A stretch of 64,000 bases of DNA from Promethearchaeota archaeon (GTDB lineage Archaea > Asgardarchaeota > Lokiarchaeia > Sigyniarchaeales > SOKP01), in contig JAHLWS010000065.1 in NCBI GenBank assembly GCA_019057795.1, positions 32,001 through 96,000 of the forward strand, given 5' to 3'. The first letter of the stretch is position 1. The number at the start of each line of letters is the position of its first letter. The notes under the pieces are model-generated. The model was not told the DNA's origin, made no database searches, and saw nothing but the letters and a program-made list of their open reading frames with translations. Position numbers and translations under genes: made by a program. Below, piece after piece: positions 24,067 through 40,464 of this stretch.

Positions 24067-25983
24067 ATGAGCGATTTTCAAAAATTCCTAATAGATAAGG
24101 GAATAATTTCAGACTTAATAACACGATATGGAATCGATTTAATAGATAAAGAAATAAACGATTTCATCAATAAAATGGTCGAAGATTTAACTAAGATTGA
24201 ATCGAAAGAAATTCATGATAATAAACAAGGGGATGATCACAGTTTTGATTTGGATATCCTAGCTAAATCTTACGAAAAGATTATTCCCCATTCCCAAAGA
24301 AAAACAATGGGTGAGTTTTTTACCCCCATTCAAATAGTTAATTACATACTAAAGAGAGTGGGGTATATAGAACAGCAAGATATTGAAAATAAAAAATTAA
24401 TAGATTTAAGTTGTGGTTCAGGGAGTTTTTTAATTAAAGCTGTAAAGGTTCTCTTAGAAAAATTAAGAAAGCAAATTAAATCGAAAGAGAACTCAGAGTT
24501 AACTCCTAAACAAGCTGAAGAAATTATCAACAAAATTAAAGTAAATATCTCTGGCATTGATATAAATCCAATGGCTTGTATATTATGCCAAATCAACTTT
24601 TATTATACACTTTTCGAACTCATAAAAATTATTTTAGAAACAAATAAAGATTACCAAATACCCGTATTTAATATTTTCAATAAAGATACTCTTCAATTTA
24701 ATTTTAATAATAAATACGACTATGTAGTTGGAAATCCCCCATATTTATTTATTCGAGCGATTCCACATGATTATAGAAAATTAATTGAAAAACTCCCATT
24801 GGAAACAAATAAGGGTCAATATGACTACTATCAACTGTTTATCGAAATAGGAATTCAAATATTAAAGCAAAATGGTTTACTTGGTTATATAATCCCTGAT
24901 TCTTTGCTCGTGTTATCAAATCGTAAAATACTTAGAAAATATATATACAACTCAACTAAGATAAAGGAGATTTATTATAGCGGCCCGCAATTCGATGAAC
25001 CAGTCGTTTCAAATATTATTCTTGTTTTAGAAAAAGAATCAGATGAAATAAAGAGGAAAAATAATCAAATCATATTAAAATTTCCATTAGAGCAATCTCA
25101 AGATGATAATACAATTCTTCAAAATGTAATTGAAAAATGGAATTATCGATTTCTAATTAATTTAAATGACCAGGATAGAGAAATTATCGAGTTTTTGAAC
25201 ATAAATTTTCCTGAATTAAATGATTTAAGTGTTAATCCAAATTTTAGAATAGATATATGGAGGGGCGTTGAATTAGGCAAAAATGGAAAGGTTATATTCT
25301 GTAATATTTGTAATAAATATTTTCCTCTTCCAAAAAATAATTATATATGCAAAGAATGTAAATCAGAATTAAGCAATGATTCTATAGAAAGTATAATAAT
25401 AAAAAGTATAAAAGGCGATTTAAAAAAAAATTATAAACCATTTCTCTATTCTATTAATCGATATCAAGTAAAGGAATTAAAATATATTAATACAACTAAA
25501 CAAGGCATTAATTACAAGGAGTTAAATCGCTACGAAAATCGCGTAATAGTAAGACAATTAGCACAAAATAGCTTAATATGTGCTACTTATGATAAGGATT
25601 CATTGACTTCGCAATCGCTTTACAATATAAAAATACTTAAATCACCTATTACAGAATTTAATAATTATTACCTTCTAGGGCTTTTAAATTCGCAATTATT
25701 AGCGTTTTACTTTATTAAATCATTTGGCTCTTATAAAAAACTATTCCCAAGGATTCTTATAGAGAATTTAAAAAGTATGCCTATAGTAGTTCCTGAAATC
25801 GACATTGAAAAGAAATTTTCAAGAGAAATTATAATACTCGTCAAAACCATCTTGAAATTAGATAAATTTGATACAGAACACTATACTAGTTTACAAAATA
25901 AAATTAATTCACTTGTTTTTGATCTCTATCGTATAACAAATGAGCAACGCAATTATATATCTGATGTTTTGAAGAATTTATGA
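24067..25983 (+). CDS. N6-adenine DNA methyltransferase (gamma class, TaqI/Eco57I-like)
   Basis: GEFFTP, DLSCGSGSF and VVGNPPY motifs; C-terminal YLLGLLNS target-recognition region with a Cys4 insert. Confidence 0.9.
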   Translation: MSDFQKFLIDKGIISDLITRYGIDLIDKEINDFINKMVEDLTKIESKEIHDNKQGDDHSFDLDILAKSYEKIIPHSQRKTMGEFFTPIQIVNYILKRVGYIEQQDIENKKLIDLSCGSGSFLIKAVKVLLEKLRKQIKSKENSELTPKQAEEIINKIKVNISGIDINPMACILCQINFYYTLFELIKIILETNKDYQIPVFNIFNKDTLQFNFNNKYDYVVGNPPYLFIRAIPHDYRKLIEKLPLETNKGQYDYYQLFIEIGIQILKQNGLLGYIIPDSLLVLSNRKILRKYIYNSTKIKEIYYSGPQFDEPVVSNIILVLEKESDEIKRKNNQIILKFPLEQSQDDNTILQNVIEKWNYRFLINLNDQDREIIEFLNINFPELNDLSVNPNFRIDIWRGVELGKNGKVIFCNICNKYFPLPKNNYICKECKSELSNDSIESIIIKSIKGDLKKNYKPFLYSINRYQVKELKYINTTKQGINYKELNRYENRVIVRQLAQNSLICATYDKDSLTSQSLYNIKILKSPITEFNNYYLLGLLNSQLLAFYFIKSFGSYKKLFPRILIENLKSMPIVVPEIDIEKKFSREIIILVKTILKLDKFDTEHYTSLQNKINSLVFDLYRITNEQRNYISDVLKNL

Positions 25984-26665: not shown

Positions 26666-27652
26666 TTGAATTCTATGGAAGGTTTGCCCAATATCGATTT
26701 AATTCAATCCTTATTAGAAAACTACATGTTCGATGTAGATGGTGCCGCAGCGGTGACAATTTGTGATAGAGACGGTTTTATTATCGCTTCAGAAAGTAAA
26801 GAGAAAGGAAGTCACGAATCAACTTTAGTAATTGGAGCAATTTCAGCATTTCTTGATATTTATATTGATAGAATTAAAAGTGAATATAAAACCCAGAGCA
26901 ATTTTTTTAATATAACCTCAATGCAAGATAAAAAATTTGCTTATTGTTCCATGGGACCACATTGTATATTAACTACGATCGCTGATCCAACTACATCAAA
27001 TACAGAACTAAGGATTTATTCGGAATATATTGCCAGTAAGGTTGAACTGATTCTTGATGGTTTCGATAATGTGTCTACAGATATACCCGAAATTATCCGC
27101 GTTTTATCAAAAAGAAGAGAAGGTAAGCTACCGAAGGGTGAATTTACGGCAAAACTCCTTCTAACTGGCGATTTTAAAGTTGGAAAAACTTCTTTAATTA
27201 AGAGATTTGTCGAAAATGTATTCAGTGAAACATATATCTCAACGATTGGCGTTGAGATTTCTAAGAAATCCATTGTAATGGACGAAGATACAAGCATTAA
27301 CTTCGTCCTCTGGGATATTGGAGGTCAAATAGGCTCAATGACACCTTATAGACGAAGATTTTACGAAGGGGCAAGCGCAGCTTTTATAGTGATTGACAGA
27401 ACCCGTCCAAATAATTTAGAAAGCGTTAAGAAATGGTATGAGGACATAAAAACTTCTGTATCGAAAAGTATACCCGTTGTGATAGTTGGAAATAAATCGG
27501 ATTTACTAGAAGAGATAGTAATTAGCGAAGACGAGATAAAGGTTGTTGCTAAACAACTAGGTTTTCACCACATTTTGACTTCTGCTCGAACAGGTGAAAA
27601 TGTCAACGAGGCTTTCCTTTATATTGCCTACAGAGATATTGAGAAAGCGTAG
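26666..27652 (+). CDS. Roadblock/LC7 domain fused to a Rab-like small GTPase
   Basis: N-terminal AAAVTICDRDGFIIAS; G-boxes GDFKVGKT, WDIGGQ, NKSD and TSA. Confidence 0.9.
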   Translation: MNSMEGLPNIDLIQSLLENYMFDVDGAAAVTICDRDGFIIASESKEKGSHESTLVIGAISAFLDIYIDRIKSEYKTQSNFFNITSMQDKKFAYCSMGPHCILTTIADPTTSNTELRIYSEYIASKVELILDGFDNVSTDIPEIIRVLSKRREGKLPKGEFTAKLLLTGDFKVGKTSLIKRFVENVFSETYISTIGVEISKKSIVMDEDTSINFVLWDIGGQIGSMTPYRRRFYEGASAAFIVIDRTRPNNLESVKKWYEDIKTSVSKSIPVVIVGNKSDLLEEIVISEDEIKVVAKQLGFHHILTSARTGENVNEAFLYIAYRDIEKA

Positions 27653-27762
27653 ATTAATCGATAGAAACTTTTTTAATTCTCATATATATTCTTATTATTG
27701 TAAGATTAGCATCAAGTTTGTTAAATATTTGTATAGAAATAAATAAAGGAGGTTATAAAAAA

Positions 27763-28689
27763 ATAGTATTAAAGGTTTTATTCAACGACATTTTGGCGAC
27801 TTGAAATCAATCAGGCTATTTAATGGGATTTTCGATAAAAGAATTGACATATCAGGGAAAATATTTGCTCTTTTTGACAGAACAGCAGTTTGCCGGGCCA
27901 TGGTTCAGTTTTAAATTGATAGGCAAAAAAGTGGGCACTATTCCTGTTGTGTTGAAAAATATTGAACCAACGCCGATCTATAAAATGGTAAACAGTCGGA
28001 CGGGAACTGTGATCGACCGTATAACGCTAGATTTTGACATAAAAGAATACTTAAAAAAATTAATAAGAGAAAAGAAAATTCAACCGATTAGATTTAAAAA
28101 AGAAAATTCTTCGATTCGGTTATATATTGACGTCTTTAATCGTCCAAAAGTTCCTTATGTCAACACATTTTTCACATTAAAGAATATTTCCGATTTCAGC
28201 TTAATTGACTTCTCAATGTACTTTGTGTTTGACTTTGATATCAACGGATTAGAAGGTTTCGATAACGACTTATCTGGTTATGACGAAGAAAACGACATAC
28301 TTTACCAATACGATCATACAGGTTTATATGGTGGCTTCTCTCCTATATCAAAATCGACGAATTACGAAACTTGTTTAACGAAAGACTTTGAAATTAATAA
28401 CGAAAGATTGAATCTGTCAAATACTTTATATGGAGAGGCTGGAGAAATCTTATCGGCTTTGCAAATTGAGTTCAAAACTTTAAAGCCAGACCAATCGTTT
28501 CAGACTGCTTTAATTATTTCTGGAGCTTTAAGCAAAGAAGAATTAATTGAAAACATTAACGAAGGCAAAACCAATGCGATGAAATTTTTGTCGCAAGTAA
28601 ACAGATCAGTAAAATCAGAGCAAAGAAACAGACAAGAAGAAGCTTTCATTAAAATCAATCTCCAAAAATCAGTTGATTGTAATGAATAA
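27763..28689 (+). CDS. Uncharacterised beta-rich protein; candidate selenoprotein (in-frame TGA at 27802-27804)
   Basis: ORF 27823..28689 extends upstream in frame through a single TGA to a GGAGG (27748) / ATA (27763) start; SECIS-like hairpin in the 3' UTR. The coding call for 27823..28689 is firm; the extension is inferred. Confidence 0.55.
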
Positions 28690-28765
28690 GTCCTATTTAA
28701 TGATTCAAATAAAAAAGTCCAATTAGGGAAGTTATTTGATGAATGCTCCGCGAGAGTTGGGATTT
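28690..28765 (+). promoter_or_regulatory. Putative eukaryote-like SECIS element
   Basis: AUGA-U core (28700-28704), 8-bp stem UCAAAUAA/UUAUUUGA, apical AAAA plus mini-stem UCC/GGA, 3' U-GA-A core, lower stem UCCUA/UGGGA. Confidence 0.55.
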
Positions 28766-28827: not shown

Positions 28828-29922
28828 TCAATTATTACTTTGCTCAAACTCAAATTTACTATAATTTACAGTAAATTTTTTACCTTCTTCGCTATAATTT
28901 TTTATGGAAAATAATAAAATTTCAATTTCTTGTTTTGTAATAACCGGAAACTTATAATTTTTCGCTTGATATTTAGGTTCCTTTCCTGATTTCTTATATT
29001 TTTCTATAAATTCAATATGACTTTTAATTCGGTTATTGTTAATCGATTGAGTAGTATTTTTTAGTTCTTTCAGATTAAGTTTAAAGCCTTCCAAAAATTC
29101 AGAATTAATCTCGTACCCTATAGAATTTCTCCTAGAAACCATCGCAGCGAGAGTCGTTGTACCTGTCCCCCAAAAAGGATCTAAAACTATGTCTCCATAA
29201 ATAGAAAACATATTGATCAATCTATATGGCAATTTTAGGGGAAAAGCTGCTGATCTTTCTCTTATTTTTTTTTTATTTCCATTTTGATTATTCAATTTTT
29301 GGGACATCCCTCTAATATCTACCCACAAATCTGAAAACCATTTATTTCTTTCTTCCCAAAAATAAGCACTATTATATCTATGCTCAAACCCAGGAGGTAG
29401 CTTCCTTTTTTTATCCCCTTTTCTAAAAATTAATACATACTCGTGTTCAAGGGTTATATATGCATTTGTTGGCAACATACCTGATCCTAAGAATTTATTA
29501 GGACTATTTGTTGGTTTTCGCCATAGAATGCATGGTAAAACTATAAATCCATTGTTTTGAAAAAAAGTAGTTATTCTAACATGGTTAGCAAATAGTTGAA
29601 AACTTTTATTAATATTTCTTGTAGCATCTCCAACATTAATACATACAATTCCCCCCGGTTTTACCACTCTCACAACTTCATTCCAAATCTTTTCTAATTC
29701 TTCATGCATAAGATTAAAAGCGCTATTACCGTCTCCCTTTTGAAGATATTGTTGGATATTTTCGTTTAGCGTTGAAAATAATGCATCCCACATTTCTATC
29801 ATGGGGTAAGGGGGAGAAGTTATTACCAAATCAACTGTGTCTGATTTTACTTCGCTCATATCAGAAGAATTCTTAAAAAAAAATTTGTGAATAGTTTCCA
29901 TTATCAAATTATTAGTCTTCAA
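28828..29922 (-). CDS. N4-cytosine (beta class) DNA methyltransferase
   Basis: TSPPY precedes DPFWGTGTT. Confidence 0.9.
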   Translation of the reverse strand: MKTNNLIMETIHKFFFKNSSDMSEVKSDTVDLVITSPPYPMIEMWDALFSTLNENIQQYLQKGDGNSAFNLMHEELEKIWNEVVRVVKPGGIVCINVGDATRNINKSFQLFANHVRITTFFQNNGFIVLPCILWRKPTNSPNKFLGSGMLPTNAYITLEHEYVLIFRKGDKKRKLPPGFEHRYNSAYFWEERNKWFSDLWVDIRGMSQKLNNQNGNKKKIRERSAAFPLKLPYRLINMFSIYGDIVLDPFWGTGTTTLAAMVSRRNSIGYEINSEFLEGFKLNLKELKNTTQSINNNRIKSHIEFIEKYKKSGKEPKYQAKNYKFPVITKQEIEILLFSIKNYSEEGKKFTVNYSKFEFEQSNN

Positions 29923-37638: not shown

Positions 37639-40464
37639 ATGGTGAGAGCAAATCATATAATAATTGTTCCTGAGACCCACTGGGACCGTGAAACTTTGTA
37701 TAATTAATATACAAAGCACGATTGGTATCTCCCGTTTCAAGAGTATAGAGCAAAACTAGTTCTCATGATGGATAAGCTCTTGGATATCCTAAGAAGCGAT
37801 CCAGATTATAAAAATTTCACTCTTGATGGACAAACTATTCCGATAGAGGACTATCTTGAAGTCCGACCTGAATTTGAAGATGAGATTAAAAAGTATGTAA
37901 AAGAAAGGCGGCTTTCGATTGGGCCTATGTATATTTTACCAGATGAATTTTTGGTAAGCGGCGAATCTTTGATTAGGAACTTAATAATTGGACACCAAAT
38001 TGCTAAGAGATTTGGAAGGGTTATGAAAGCAGGTTACATCCCTGATCCTTTTGGCCACATTGCTCAATTACCTCAAATACTTCAAGGATTTGAAATCCCT
38101 TCGATTTTATTCTGGCGAGGGTTTGGTAACGAATTCGTAGAAAATAACCTAAACATTGAATTTATTTGGAATTCCCCCGGAGATTCTAATTCTATTTTGG
38201 GAATATTTTTGAAGCAGAGCTACGGTTCGGTTGCTGATCTTAATTTATCAAAAAGAAGCGGAAAATATAAACTGGCGCTTCATAAGATAAAAAGGGTTGT
38301 TTCTGAGTTCGAAAAATTCACAGCTACATCCTATGTTCTTTTGAATAGCGGTTCAGATCATCACGAAGCTCGATCGGAGATTCCTGAAATAGTTAGACAA
38401 TGGAACGAAATGTATCCCGAGAAACTTTTAGAACAAAACGATTTTGAATATTATGTCGATAAAGTATTACATAGTAATCCACAGTTAAAACAGTTTAAAG
38501 GCGAATTAAGAGGTGGAAAGTACGCACATCTACTTTCAGGGGTATTTTCAGCTCGTATGTGGATCAAGCAGAGAAACACGGCAATCGAATATCTGTACGA
38601 AAAATATACGGAACCCTTATCAACAATTATATGGTCTCTCGATAAATATAAGGAATTTAATTACCCTCAAGCTTATATGCTCACAGGTTTGAAATGGCTT
38701 ATCAAAAACCACCCTCACGATAGCATATGTGGCTGTTCTATTGATCAGGTTCACAAAGAAATGGAGACTAGGTTTGATTGGGCGGAGCAAATCGGTAATG
38801 AAGTGTTTAAAAATTCAATATTGTATCTATACAATCTGATTACAGTTGAGGAAGACGAGAAAAAAATTCCGATCGTAGTATTTAATCCTCTTCCTTGGAA
38901 ACGTAAAGATATCGCAAATTTCCACATAATATCCAACACTAAAAAAGCTGGTTTTAAAAATCCAGACGCTTTCAAAATTCTCGACTCCGAAGGAAACGAG
39001 ATCGCATACCAATACGTTCAAATCAGCGAAGAGCCAAGATATAGATTAATTGGATCGGTTAGTTATTATTGCTCGTTTTTAGCCGAGGTTCCTGCTTGTG
39101 GATATAAGTGTTATTATATCGTACCAGGAGAAAAACCCGAAGAACCTGTAGTAAAGAGTAAAAAATTGAAGTTAGGTATAAATAGCTTAGAAAATCAGTT
39201 CTACAAAATCAACATAAGTTTTAAGGGACAAATCGACGTTTTAGATAAGGAAAGTAAAGTTTTGTACGAAAATATTTGTTATTTTGAGGATATAGGAGAT
39301 TGGGGGGATGAATATGACTTTTCGGGGCCATATGAAAATCAAACTGATTTAAAATTCACCTCAGAAGATCTGAATATTCTAGAAATAGCACCGTTTTTAG
39401 ACGGGGTCACCCAAAAAACGATTAGAATAAGAGCAAATCTCAATTTACCTACTTCTTTAACCGAGGATAGATATAGTAGAGACGAATATCTGATTTCAAA
39501 CTTAATCGATATCTATATAACGGTATATAAGGACATTAAACGAGTTGATTTTAAGATTGAATTAGAAAACAATAGTAAAGACCACCGAATACGAGTACTT
39601 TTTCCTTCAAAAATTAAATCTAAAAATGTAGATTCCGATGGTCATTTTTATGTCATTTCGCGAGATGTTGAGATGCCAAAATCTGAGAAATGGGCTCAAC
39701 AACCCGTACCTACTAACCATCAGAAAGATTTTGTCTCTGTTAACGATACATCAAGAACTTTTTCGGTTATAAACAAAGGATTACCCGAATATGAGGCAGT
39801 TATAAATAAAGATGGAACGATTTCGCTAGCTATTACCTTACTGCGGTGTATTGAATGGCTTTCAAGACACGATTTTACCTCGAGAAGAAGTAACGCAGGT
39901 CCGGACCTAAATACTCCCGAAGCTCAATGTCTTGGAAAGCATACTTTCGAACTTTCTCTCGTTATCGAAGGAAACAAACCTAATTGGTTAGATTCGAACG
40001 CTCACATAAAAGGTAAAGAATTTAACAATCCTTTTGAGGTTGTGGTTCCCTCGATAGTTAGAACCTCAATAAGAGCTTCGAATAAAGTCGTTTTAGCCCC
40101 TTTTGGACTAATTTCATATTTTAAACCATCAACTCGTCAACCTTTAAAACCTTATTTACCTACCAAATTAAGCTTCCTTGAAATCGATAACACAAAAATA
40201 ATGCTTAGTGCTTTGAAAAAATCGGAAAAGGGAGAATCTTTAATCGTTAGAGTTTATAACATCTCTTCAACCACTCAAAAAGCAAGGTTAACGTTACACG
40301 AGAAAACTTCCATCAAAAGTGCGGATATTGTAAACTTTTTGGAAGAAAAGCCAGAAAACGAAATTAAGGCGAAAATTGTTTCAAGTAAAGGGAATCATCT
40401 TGATCTAACTCTGGAACCGCACATAATAGTAACGATAAAACTTGAGCTTGATAATAATTATTAA
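37639..40464 (+). CDS. GH38 alpha-mannosidase (MngB-like); join(37639..37692,37723..40464)
   Basis: The spliced N-terminus MVRANHIIIVPETHWDRE|WYLPFQEYRAKL restores the HWDREWY Zn motif; LDGQT, PDPFGH and HDSICGCS motifs also present. Confidence 0.9.
37693..37722 (+). other. Putative 30-nt BHB mRNA intron
   Basis: CGUG-AA^A-CUUUGUAUA-AUUAA-UAUACAAAG-CACG-AU^U: perfect 9-bp stem, 4-bp central helix, two 3-nt bulges; contains an in-frame TAA. Confidence 0.85.

Follow-up and report, generated by a model that had tools for sequence, protein, structure and literature searches.

The window analysed here is a 64-kb stretch of a Lokiarchaeial genome of 4.95 Mb (coded G000; C-numbers denote its contigs), and the gene in question lies on its + strand at 27763-28689. 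From the comparisons of sequence reported below, we hold with high confidence that this is a genuine, previously unannotated Lokiarchaeial selenoprotein gene, in which an in-frame UGA would be decoded as selenocysteine (Sec). The evidence computed here comprises coding through the UGA, a cysteine (Cys)/Sec pair among homologs, a conserved selenocysteine insertion sequence (SECIS) element and the Sec machinery of the cell. A preceding sequence-only reading had pointed to a frame continuing upstream of a 288-aa open reading frame (ORF), with an in-frame TGA behind a GGAGG at 27748, and to a eukaryote-like type II SECIS about 10 nt after the stop codon, in a protein resembling none of the selenoprotein families that it named for Lokiarchaeia (SPS, HdrA, VhuD, VhuU and peroxiredoxin-like). 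Both features are present in the sequence, and the checks it had proposed, on the TGA column in orthologs, on the hairpin under a covariance model and on the Sec genes of the genome, were run and came out in its favour.

The frame from ATA 27763 (27763-27765) consists of 13 sense codons, IVLKVLFNDILAT, the in-frame TGA at 27802-27804 (residue 14), six codons for NQSGYL and an internal ATG at 27823-27825 (Met21). This ATG opens a 288-codon ORF that ends at the stop TAA (28687-28689); the full coding sequence (CDS) has 308 codons plus TAA, and the predicted residues spanning the UGA are ...ILAT-U-NQSGYLMGFSIK. The codon of a C-terminal cysteine, Cys306, a candidate resolving residue, is at 28678-28680.

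Of 36 sampled genomes of the genus, 33 carry the gene, and 33 genus orthologs with enough upstream sequence (protein identity 70-96%) were compared. The TGA is invariant in all of them while the adjacent third codon positions vary. The 20 codons from ATA to ATG vary as the CDS does and unlike the DNA further upstream: the entropies at the three codon positions are 0.52/0.21/1.07 in this extension and 0.54/0.36/1.23 in the first 40 CDS codons, against 1.44/1.40/1.18 in the non-coding DNA upstream of the Shine-Dalgarno (SD) motif. Between TGA and ATG, the changes seen at Gly (GGN), Tyr (TAY) and Leu (YTN) are synonymous. The coding signal begins before the ATG, contrary to the outcome that the sequence-only reading had named as refuting it, namely coding from ATG 27823 only.

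It may still be argued that the TGA is a true stop, that the protein is the 288-aa ORF from ATG 27823, that the conserved stretch upstream is a short regulatory leader ORF or a 5′ untranslated region (UTR) element, and that the hairpin after the stop serves as a terminator or is a generic kink-turn. Public annotations all start at this ATG: the 120 best database homologs (120/120) are entered as "hypothetical protein" of 260-289 aa with at most 94% query coverage, and so begin at the internal ATG, which is invariant within the genus. Many orthologs have no canonical start before the TGA, and the single-sequence fold of the 3′ UTR has an unremarkable z-score. Nevertheless, we consider this explanation highly improbable. 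The six codons from TGA to ATG change synonymously and are homologous to a region (G18, Y19) of Cys forms that have no stop; one genus (g18) lacks the ATG altogether; homologs of another family (f4) start at an ATG upstream of the TGA; and the 3′ element shows features peculiar to SECIS elements and is recognised by a SECIS covariance model.

The comparison was extended to 161 genomes of the class, 140 of which carry the gene. About 123 of these 140 have one TGA inside a full-length match, made up of about 119 of the 124 gene-bearing genomes of the window's own family (f1, with the gene in 13 genera and G000 included), one genome of family f3 and three of family f4; f2, f3 and f4 are other families of the same order. 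Homologs in these other families share 22-32% identity, and eleven f2 genomes have the gene without an in-frame stop. The N-terminus of the f2 proteins reads M-x3-IDYETIC-x-N-C-KEKGY, with the second Cys of the CxxC exactly at the TGA column, and the same holds for the CxxC of the database proteins P0001, P0003, P0004, P0007, P0008 and P0012. In f3 and f4, the TGA stands at the same column after a canonical ATG or GTG start, which gives C-x-x-U. Genus g18 begins with GTG and reads C-I-T-U; it has Phe where the window protein has Met21, and no downstream ATG. In genus g22, a GTG start precedes the TGA by 17 codons. The window protein itself reads L-A-T-U, that is, without the first Cys of CxxU. 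Such an alternation of Cys and TGA at one position of the alignment is classically taken as the mark of Sec. Trp, which the sequence-only reading had named as a refuting outcome, occupies this column in none of the orthologs. A micro-intron that would excise the TGA from the window gene was also considered and ruled out, the gene being collinear with the Cys forms and of equal length from the start to GFSIK.

Comparative data of this kind prove read-through as such and not the identity of the inserted residue, and the UGA might be read without Sec, by near-cognate insertion of Cys or Trp or through general reassignment of UGA. We give this very little credence. TGA is an ordinary stop in the source genome, where 243 of the 1817 ORFs with 300 or more codons (13%) terminate in it, and is therefore not reassigned; moreover, the gene is followed by a dedicated SECIS, which belongs to the class found after the VhuD, PrxL, FrhA and SPS genes, Cys and TGA alternate at one column, and a complete Sec machinery is present.

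Translation probably starts at the ATA (AUA) of position 27763. This codon was taken as the start because it aligns with Met1 of the Cys homologs, which lies 13 codons before the Cys/Sec column exactly as the ATA does, and because the alternatives are wanting. A Shine-Dalgarno-like GGAGGT (27748-27753) precedes it by 9-10 nt, and GGAGG is found 8-10 nt 5′ of the start column in 33/33 orthologs (GGTGG in one of them), with conservation running from the GGAGG to the ATG and ending just 5′ of the GGAGG. Such a motif precedes the first ATG in only about 12% of long ORFs of the source genome. The start column is occupied by ATA in 29 orthologs, ATC in one, TTG in one and GAA followed by ATT in two, and one further species has ATT; ATA, ATC, ATT and TTG are all one base from AUG. 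When the frame is followed upstream from the TGA to the first stop, no ATG, GTG or TTG is met in 12 of the 33 orthologs, and in many of the orthologs that stop is just two codons before the ATA. The sequence-only reading had left the start open between the ATA, TTG 27718 and TTG 27793, all of which exist in the window; the ATA has stood, and both TTG codons have been discarded, the former because it precedes the SD and is shared by the closest relatives only, and the latter because it is not conserved among orthologs.

A weak AUA near the UGA also raises the question of two products, in which a minor, regulated 308-aa Sec form would be made from the AUA and a dominant, Sec-free 288-aa form from AUG 27823, for example when selenium is scarce. 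The coexistence across the genus of a near-cognate start (ATA/ATC/ATT/TTG) with an invariant Met21 agrees with such an arrangement, as does the location of the UGA at codon 14, near the start. Yet the perfect GGAGG stands before the ATA, and ATG 27823 has no SD-like motif before it. Met21, conserved within the genus, is not kept beyond close genera (Phe or Tyr in Cys forms, Arg in f4, Phe in g18), and the N-terminal arm is under strong purifying selection. We regard dual production as unlikely, and take initiation at the AUA, placed by the conserved GGAGG, as the probable route to a Sec-containing protein.

The 3′ UTR contains a type II lokiSECIS-like element (28688-28765, +) that is conserved in the 33 orthologs, and more strongly than the CDS. 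It is composed of an outer helix (28688-28695/28757-28765), an AUGA (28700-28703) 10 nt after the stop, a main stem UUCAAAUAA/UUAUUUGAU (28704-28712/28732-28740), an apical region (28713-28731) with an A-run AAAA, a ministem UCC/GGG and AAG, a GA (28741-28742) and a second small hairpin (28746-28756), all on the + strand. The outer helix and the second hairpin belong to the element and are additions to its first description. The outer helix and ministem of this four-helix structure were set by hand on the 33-sequence alignment, in which 86.9% of cells are paired, compared with 27-52% when the partners are slid; compensatory changes occur in 12 pairs, and none of 500 shuffles reached the observed score. 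The main stem, of eight Watson-Crick pairs and a U.U, is 100% paired and includes four compensatory pairs, and the ministem (alignment columns 33-36/40-43) is 82% paired with both-side changes in two pairs. RNAalifold on a MAFFT alignment returned the main stem and the second hairpin only. The ATGA is invariant in 33/33 sequences, and the TGA after the stem is found in 32/33, with GGA in the remaining one. The stem is followed by AAAA(A/G), and AAG closes the loop in the window sequence; a few orthologs have another base at the loop end, as their stem is longer by one pair.

The lokiSECIS features described by Mariotti 2016 (PMC4989117) are all matched by the window element: AUGA, a stem of 9 positions, about five A at the apex, AG at the end of the loop, and GA. 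The element also fits the type II form of Huang 2024 (PMC11227280), with a ministem in the apical region. A strict lokiSECIS descriptor scanned over the 4.95-Mb genome found 11 sites, against 0, 0 and 0 in three second-order Markov-simulated genomes. Six of the ten sites other than that of the window lie just after selenoprotein genes, those for VhuD (C5, C42), HdrA-VhuD (C22, C87), PrxL (C15) and an FrhA-like protein (C60). A covariance model (R1), trained only on six SECIS elements of VhuD, PrxL and FrhA genes of the source genome, placed 28692-28750 at rank 1 in the 64-kb window with 22.4 bits (E 0.012, a rough value), and the next match reached 14.6 bits. The hairpin of the sequence-only reading is thus upheld by its conservation, by its covariation and by a model built from other genes of the same genome.

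A close counterpart is the type II lokiSECIS of SPS (selD) genes (Mariotti 2016, PMC4989117; Huang 2024, PMC11227280), which also carry one N-terminal in-frame UGA. By eye, the SPS elements of the source genome share with the window element the outer helix, AUGA (UUGA in one copy), a short stem, an A-run, a ministem and GA, as well as the position just after the stop; of the two copies, only one clearly has an additional hairpin on the 3′ side. The same Sec machinery would serve both. The differences are that the main stem of the SPS type II element has 6-7 positions and that of the window element 9, as in type I lokiSECIS, that the window gene starts with AUA, and that its protein is unrelated to SPS or to any listed selenoprotein family. 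With the type I elements of VhuD/FrhD, HdrA-VhuD, PrxL and FrhA/VhuU genes, the window element shares AUGA, the 9-position stem, an A-rich loop start, the AG loop end and GA. Type I elements have a fixed 11-nt loop, whereas the window element has a 19-nt apical region with a ministem, together with the extra outer helix and second hairpin.

The source genome encodes the components needed for Sec incorporation, in line with the last of the proposed checks. SepSecS is at C73:92135-93292 (390 bits), and a tRNA-Sec gene lies directly 5′ of it at C73:91757-91909 (+; L056:1758-1910; 28 bits, full-length). The tRNA has a UCA anticodon (loop CUUCAAA), a 9-bp acceptor and a 4-bp T stem (9/4 fold) and a G discriminator, and its gene is interrupted twice: the T loop has an insert of 31 nt, a feature already published for Lokiarchaeota, and another insert separates the acceptor strand from the D arm. 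The gene was missed by aragorn, run with and without introns, and by a strict home-made descriptor; a whole-genome Rfam search at the gathering threshold returned ordinary tRNAs only. It was recovered only by permissive cmscan around the EFSec-like and SepSecS genes. The EFSec-like gene, about 3 kb from the tRNA-Sec, scores 232 bits and so narrowly misses the 242 required for bacterial SelB; a PSTK-like gene, located on C49, scores 143 bits, below its cut-off. Two SPS genes with in-frame TGA are both on C26. Genomes with Cys forms also have SepSecS, which indicates that the Sec or Cys state of the gene is not tied to the presence of the Sec trait. In the mechanism that we propose, UGA codon 14 would be translated as Sec through the cellular tRNA-Sec/EFSec system, directed by the eukaryote-like type II lokiSECIS right after the stop, about 900 nt 3′ of the UGA, on the assumption that the SECIS and the CDS share a transcript.

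Searches with Pfam, NCBIfam and a PDB sequence profile gave no family match for the protein, and a profile search of 1.8 billion representatives returned few full-length relatives. Among the relatives, Cys forms are 316-322 aa long and Sec forms are annotated as 288-289 aa, and the divergent proteins P0019, P0023 and P0039 have CxxCxxC at the N-terminus instead of CxxC. The AlphaFold model (mean predicted local distance difference test, pLDDT, 83.7; predicted TM-score, pTM, 0.85) is a beta super-sandwich followed by C-terminal helices. The product would be a 308-residue cytoplasmic protein with one such domain and the helices, and with Sec14 on a flexible N-terminal arm at the position of the second Cys of CxxC. 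In a VIA-align comparison, GH15, GH94, GH116 and cyclic-glucan synthase match best, each through its N-terminal domain (Z 18-21 over 210-236 residues), followed by galactose-mutarotase-like proteins at Z of about 12. For the GH15 glucoamylase/glucodextranase, GH94 phosphorylase and GH116 N-domains (for example 1ulv, 1lf6, 2cqs, 8rf9), the shared fold superposes with root-mean-square deviations of 2.3-3.3 Å and the match spans model residues 1 to about 280, at an identity of 11-14% and with no Pfam match to glycoside hydrolases (GH). These enzymes have an (alpha/alpha)6 catalytic domain, whereas the 308-residue window protein stands alone without one and has a Sec/Cys arm and C-terminal helices. 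Membership in GH15, GH94 or GH116 was rejected, as the matches cover the N-domains only and no catalytic domain is found; the fold shared in the model with these N-domains says nothing on function.

The invariant residues include U/C14, G18, K26, N77, R86, D123, N141, D157-F-D159, D169, Q182, R288 and C306. Cys306, three residues from the C-terminus, is invariant across Sec and Cys forms, and Sec14 and Cys306 are the only invariant chalcogen residues, the window protein lacking the first Cys of the motif. For this reason, a selenenylsulfide redox pair is favoured over a metal site, and the selenol could be the redox centre, with Cys306 as its partner; in relatives with CxxU, the adjacent Cys could take this part instead. 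A redox-active Sec14, and with it a redox role of the protein, is nonetheless only a tentative proposal from residue conservation, and one we hold to be somewhat doubtful. Some analogy is offered by the Rdx-type selenoproteins SelW, SelT and SelH, in which Sec is likewise the second Cys of CxxC, and the CxxU kept in the f3, f4 and g18 relatives suggests, by this analogy, thiol/selenol redox chemistry. The window protein differs from these thioredoxin-fold proteins in its beta super-sandwich, its L-A-T-U and a candidate partner Cys at the C-terminus; membership among thioredoxin-fold CxxU/UxxC selenoproteins was rejected, the model being an all-beta super-sandwich followed by helices. It perhaps works like a redox selenoprotein although it is not a member of that fold.

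As a separate observation on the fold, the central half of the sandwich (profile positions of about 120-265) is found again in other proteins, which reach 4188 aa in length (P0046, P0050, P0051, P0055, P0073, P0076). Of ten such proteins that were scanned, two have PKD together with CARDB or dockerin domains and one has a transglutaminase domain; the half-sandwich domain family has no Pfam model.

Several points weigh against the assignment as a selenoprotein or against parts of the mechanism. The main stem, with its eight Watson-Crick pairs and U.U, is shorter than that of a eukaryotic SECIS. The RNAfold energy of the 3′ UTR as a single sequence is not significant (z -1.49), and because of this the case rests on the comparison between genomes. 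The 3′ UTRs of the f4 homologs, searched for lokiSECIS, gave none: they are short, with only a GC-rich hairpin lacking AUGA and GA, which is shared as CCAAG-UAGCC-CUUGG (L031:400-535, L035:1408-1520, L041:430-561). The SPS genes of the same f4 genomes do carry AUGA/GA elements (GUGA/GA in one). As the TGA-bearing f4 homologs lack an AUGA/GA core, the recoding signal is not explained for every branch. An AUA start is out of the ordinary for archaea and was deduced only from the alignment and the want of alternatives, and the invariant internal ATG could yield a Sec-free 288-aa isoform. Finally, model residues 6-18, including Sec14, and 303-308, including Cys306, have pLDDT below 50, which makes the proximity of the two residues uncertain.

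With regard to novelty, Huang 2024 (PMC11227280) lists seven Asgard selenoprotein families, found by homology, and a review of May 2026 lists 11 archaeal selenoprotein families, none like the window protein. The family is new to both of these published lists, which agrees with the sequence-only reading, and the mechanism is that of the known lokiSECIS. The archaeal families listed were all found by homology to known ones; the window family has no relative among known selenoproteins. The 2026 review also states that most characterised selenoproteins have a thioredoxin-like fold, beside which the super-sandwich of the model is unusual. The family is widespread: about 120 species-level Lokiarchaeial genomes have it, as do hundreds of clusters from metagenomes, with database entries cut at the internal ATG. 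Asgard selenoproteomes thus seem to be undercounted and their catalogues are probably incomplete, and a SECIS-led scan would find what homology misses.

Other SECIS sites in the source genome may be mentioned in this context. At C26:53929-54164 (L074:430-665), a 65-codon membrane-anchored ORF (...GGG-U-LCL...) without a Pfam family has a canonical type I lokiSECIS 3 nt downstream. On the - strand of C63 (23698-23962; L075:99-363), a 69-codon zinc-ribbon-like ORF with four in-frame TGA (...PHG-U-T-U-VLC...VP-U-L) has a canonical lokiSECIS 20 nt after its stop. At C78:176434-176839 (L076:435-840), a strict lokiSECIS follows a 120-codon ORF with three TGA (...DVGC-U-U-E...DI-U-N) and no Pfam family. 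For a further strict match at C24:23574-23608, - strand (L077), no convincing upstream ORF was found.

A peculiarity was noticed in five species of genus g28 (G106, G144, G135, G110 and G113), whose orthologs (L086:1-1282, L087:1-1286, L088:1-1296, L089:1-1286 and L090:1-1289) have an insert directly 3′ of the Sec codon. In the four measured, its length is 29, 31, 32 and 28 nt, none of which is divisible by 3, and only its excision gives back the frame ...ATU-N-A-A-G-Y-V-M. The insert follows the UGA with AUCUUC, continues into a hairpin and ends with GAAGCAAGA before AAU; it folds into a 4-bp helix CUUG/CAAG, a 3-nt bulge and a hairpin. We liken this fold to that of the tRNA-type mRNA micro-introns reported at 37687-37725 of the window, and from its sequence the insert looks like a micro-intron at the Sec codon.

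The gene directly upstream (26666-27652, +) encodes a Roadblock/LC7 plus Ras-family GTPase (Pfam Ras, 2.8e-36), which is context and not part of the recoding. Wherever the flank of a genus locus is long enough, a homolog of this GTPase immediately precedes the selenoprotein gene, and the same holds for the f2 genomes with Cys forms (43-49% identity), but not for f4; that of G044 has Robl_LC7 and Ras domains in Pfam. The selenoprotein may act together with the GTPase encoded next to it. A predicted complex of the GTPase and the 288-aa body scored 0.00, which speaks neither for nor against binding. One can go further and picture the gene pair as a selenium-dependent control module, with a Sec14/Cys306 selenenylsulfide switch acting on or with the GTPase and an AUA/UGA/AUG selenium sensor choosing the isoform; this is a speculative scheme that we think improbable.

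In the complete f2 genomes G044 (L078:128-11793) and G050 (L079:3126-11365), the pair is part of a co-directional cluster with similar ORF sizes in the same order. The G044 cluster, by Pfam, encodes an AAA ATPase, a GH2 glycoside hydrolase, the Roadblock-Ras GTPase, the CxxC super-sandwich protein, a protein of about 333 aa of unknown type and a PhoU-domain protein, and an old yellow enzyme (OYE)/flavin-disulfide oxidoreductase follows the cluster (the Pfam run covered G044 only). The 332-aa gene downstream in f2 is unrelated to the selenoprotein family, and as a query it gave no match in the source genome. In the window, DNA methyltransferase genes flank the pair at 24067-25983 (+) and 28828-29922 (-), one of the Eco57I/N6_Mtase/TaqI_C type and one of the N6_N4_Mtase type, which suggests restriction-modification insertions around a conserved two-gene core.

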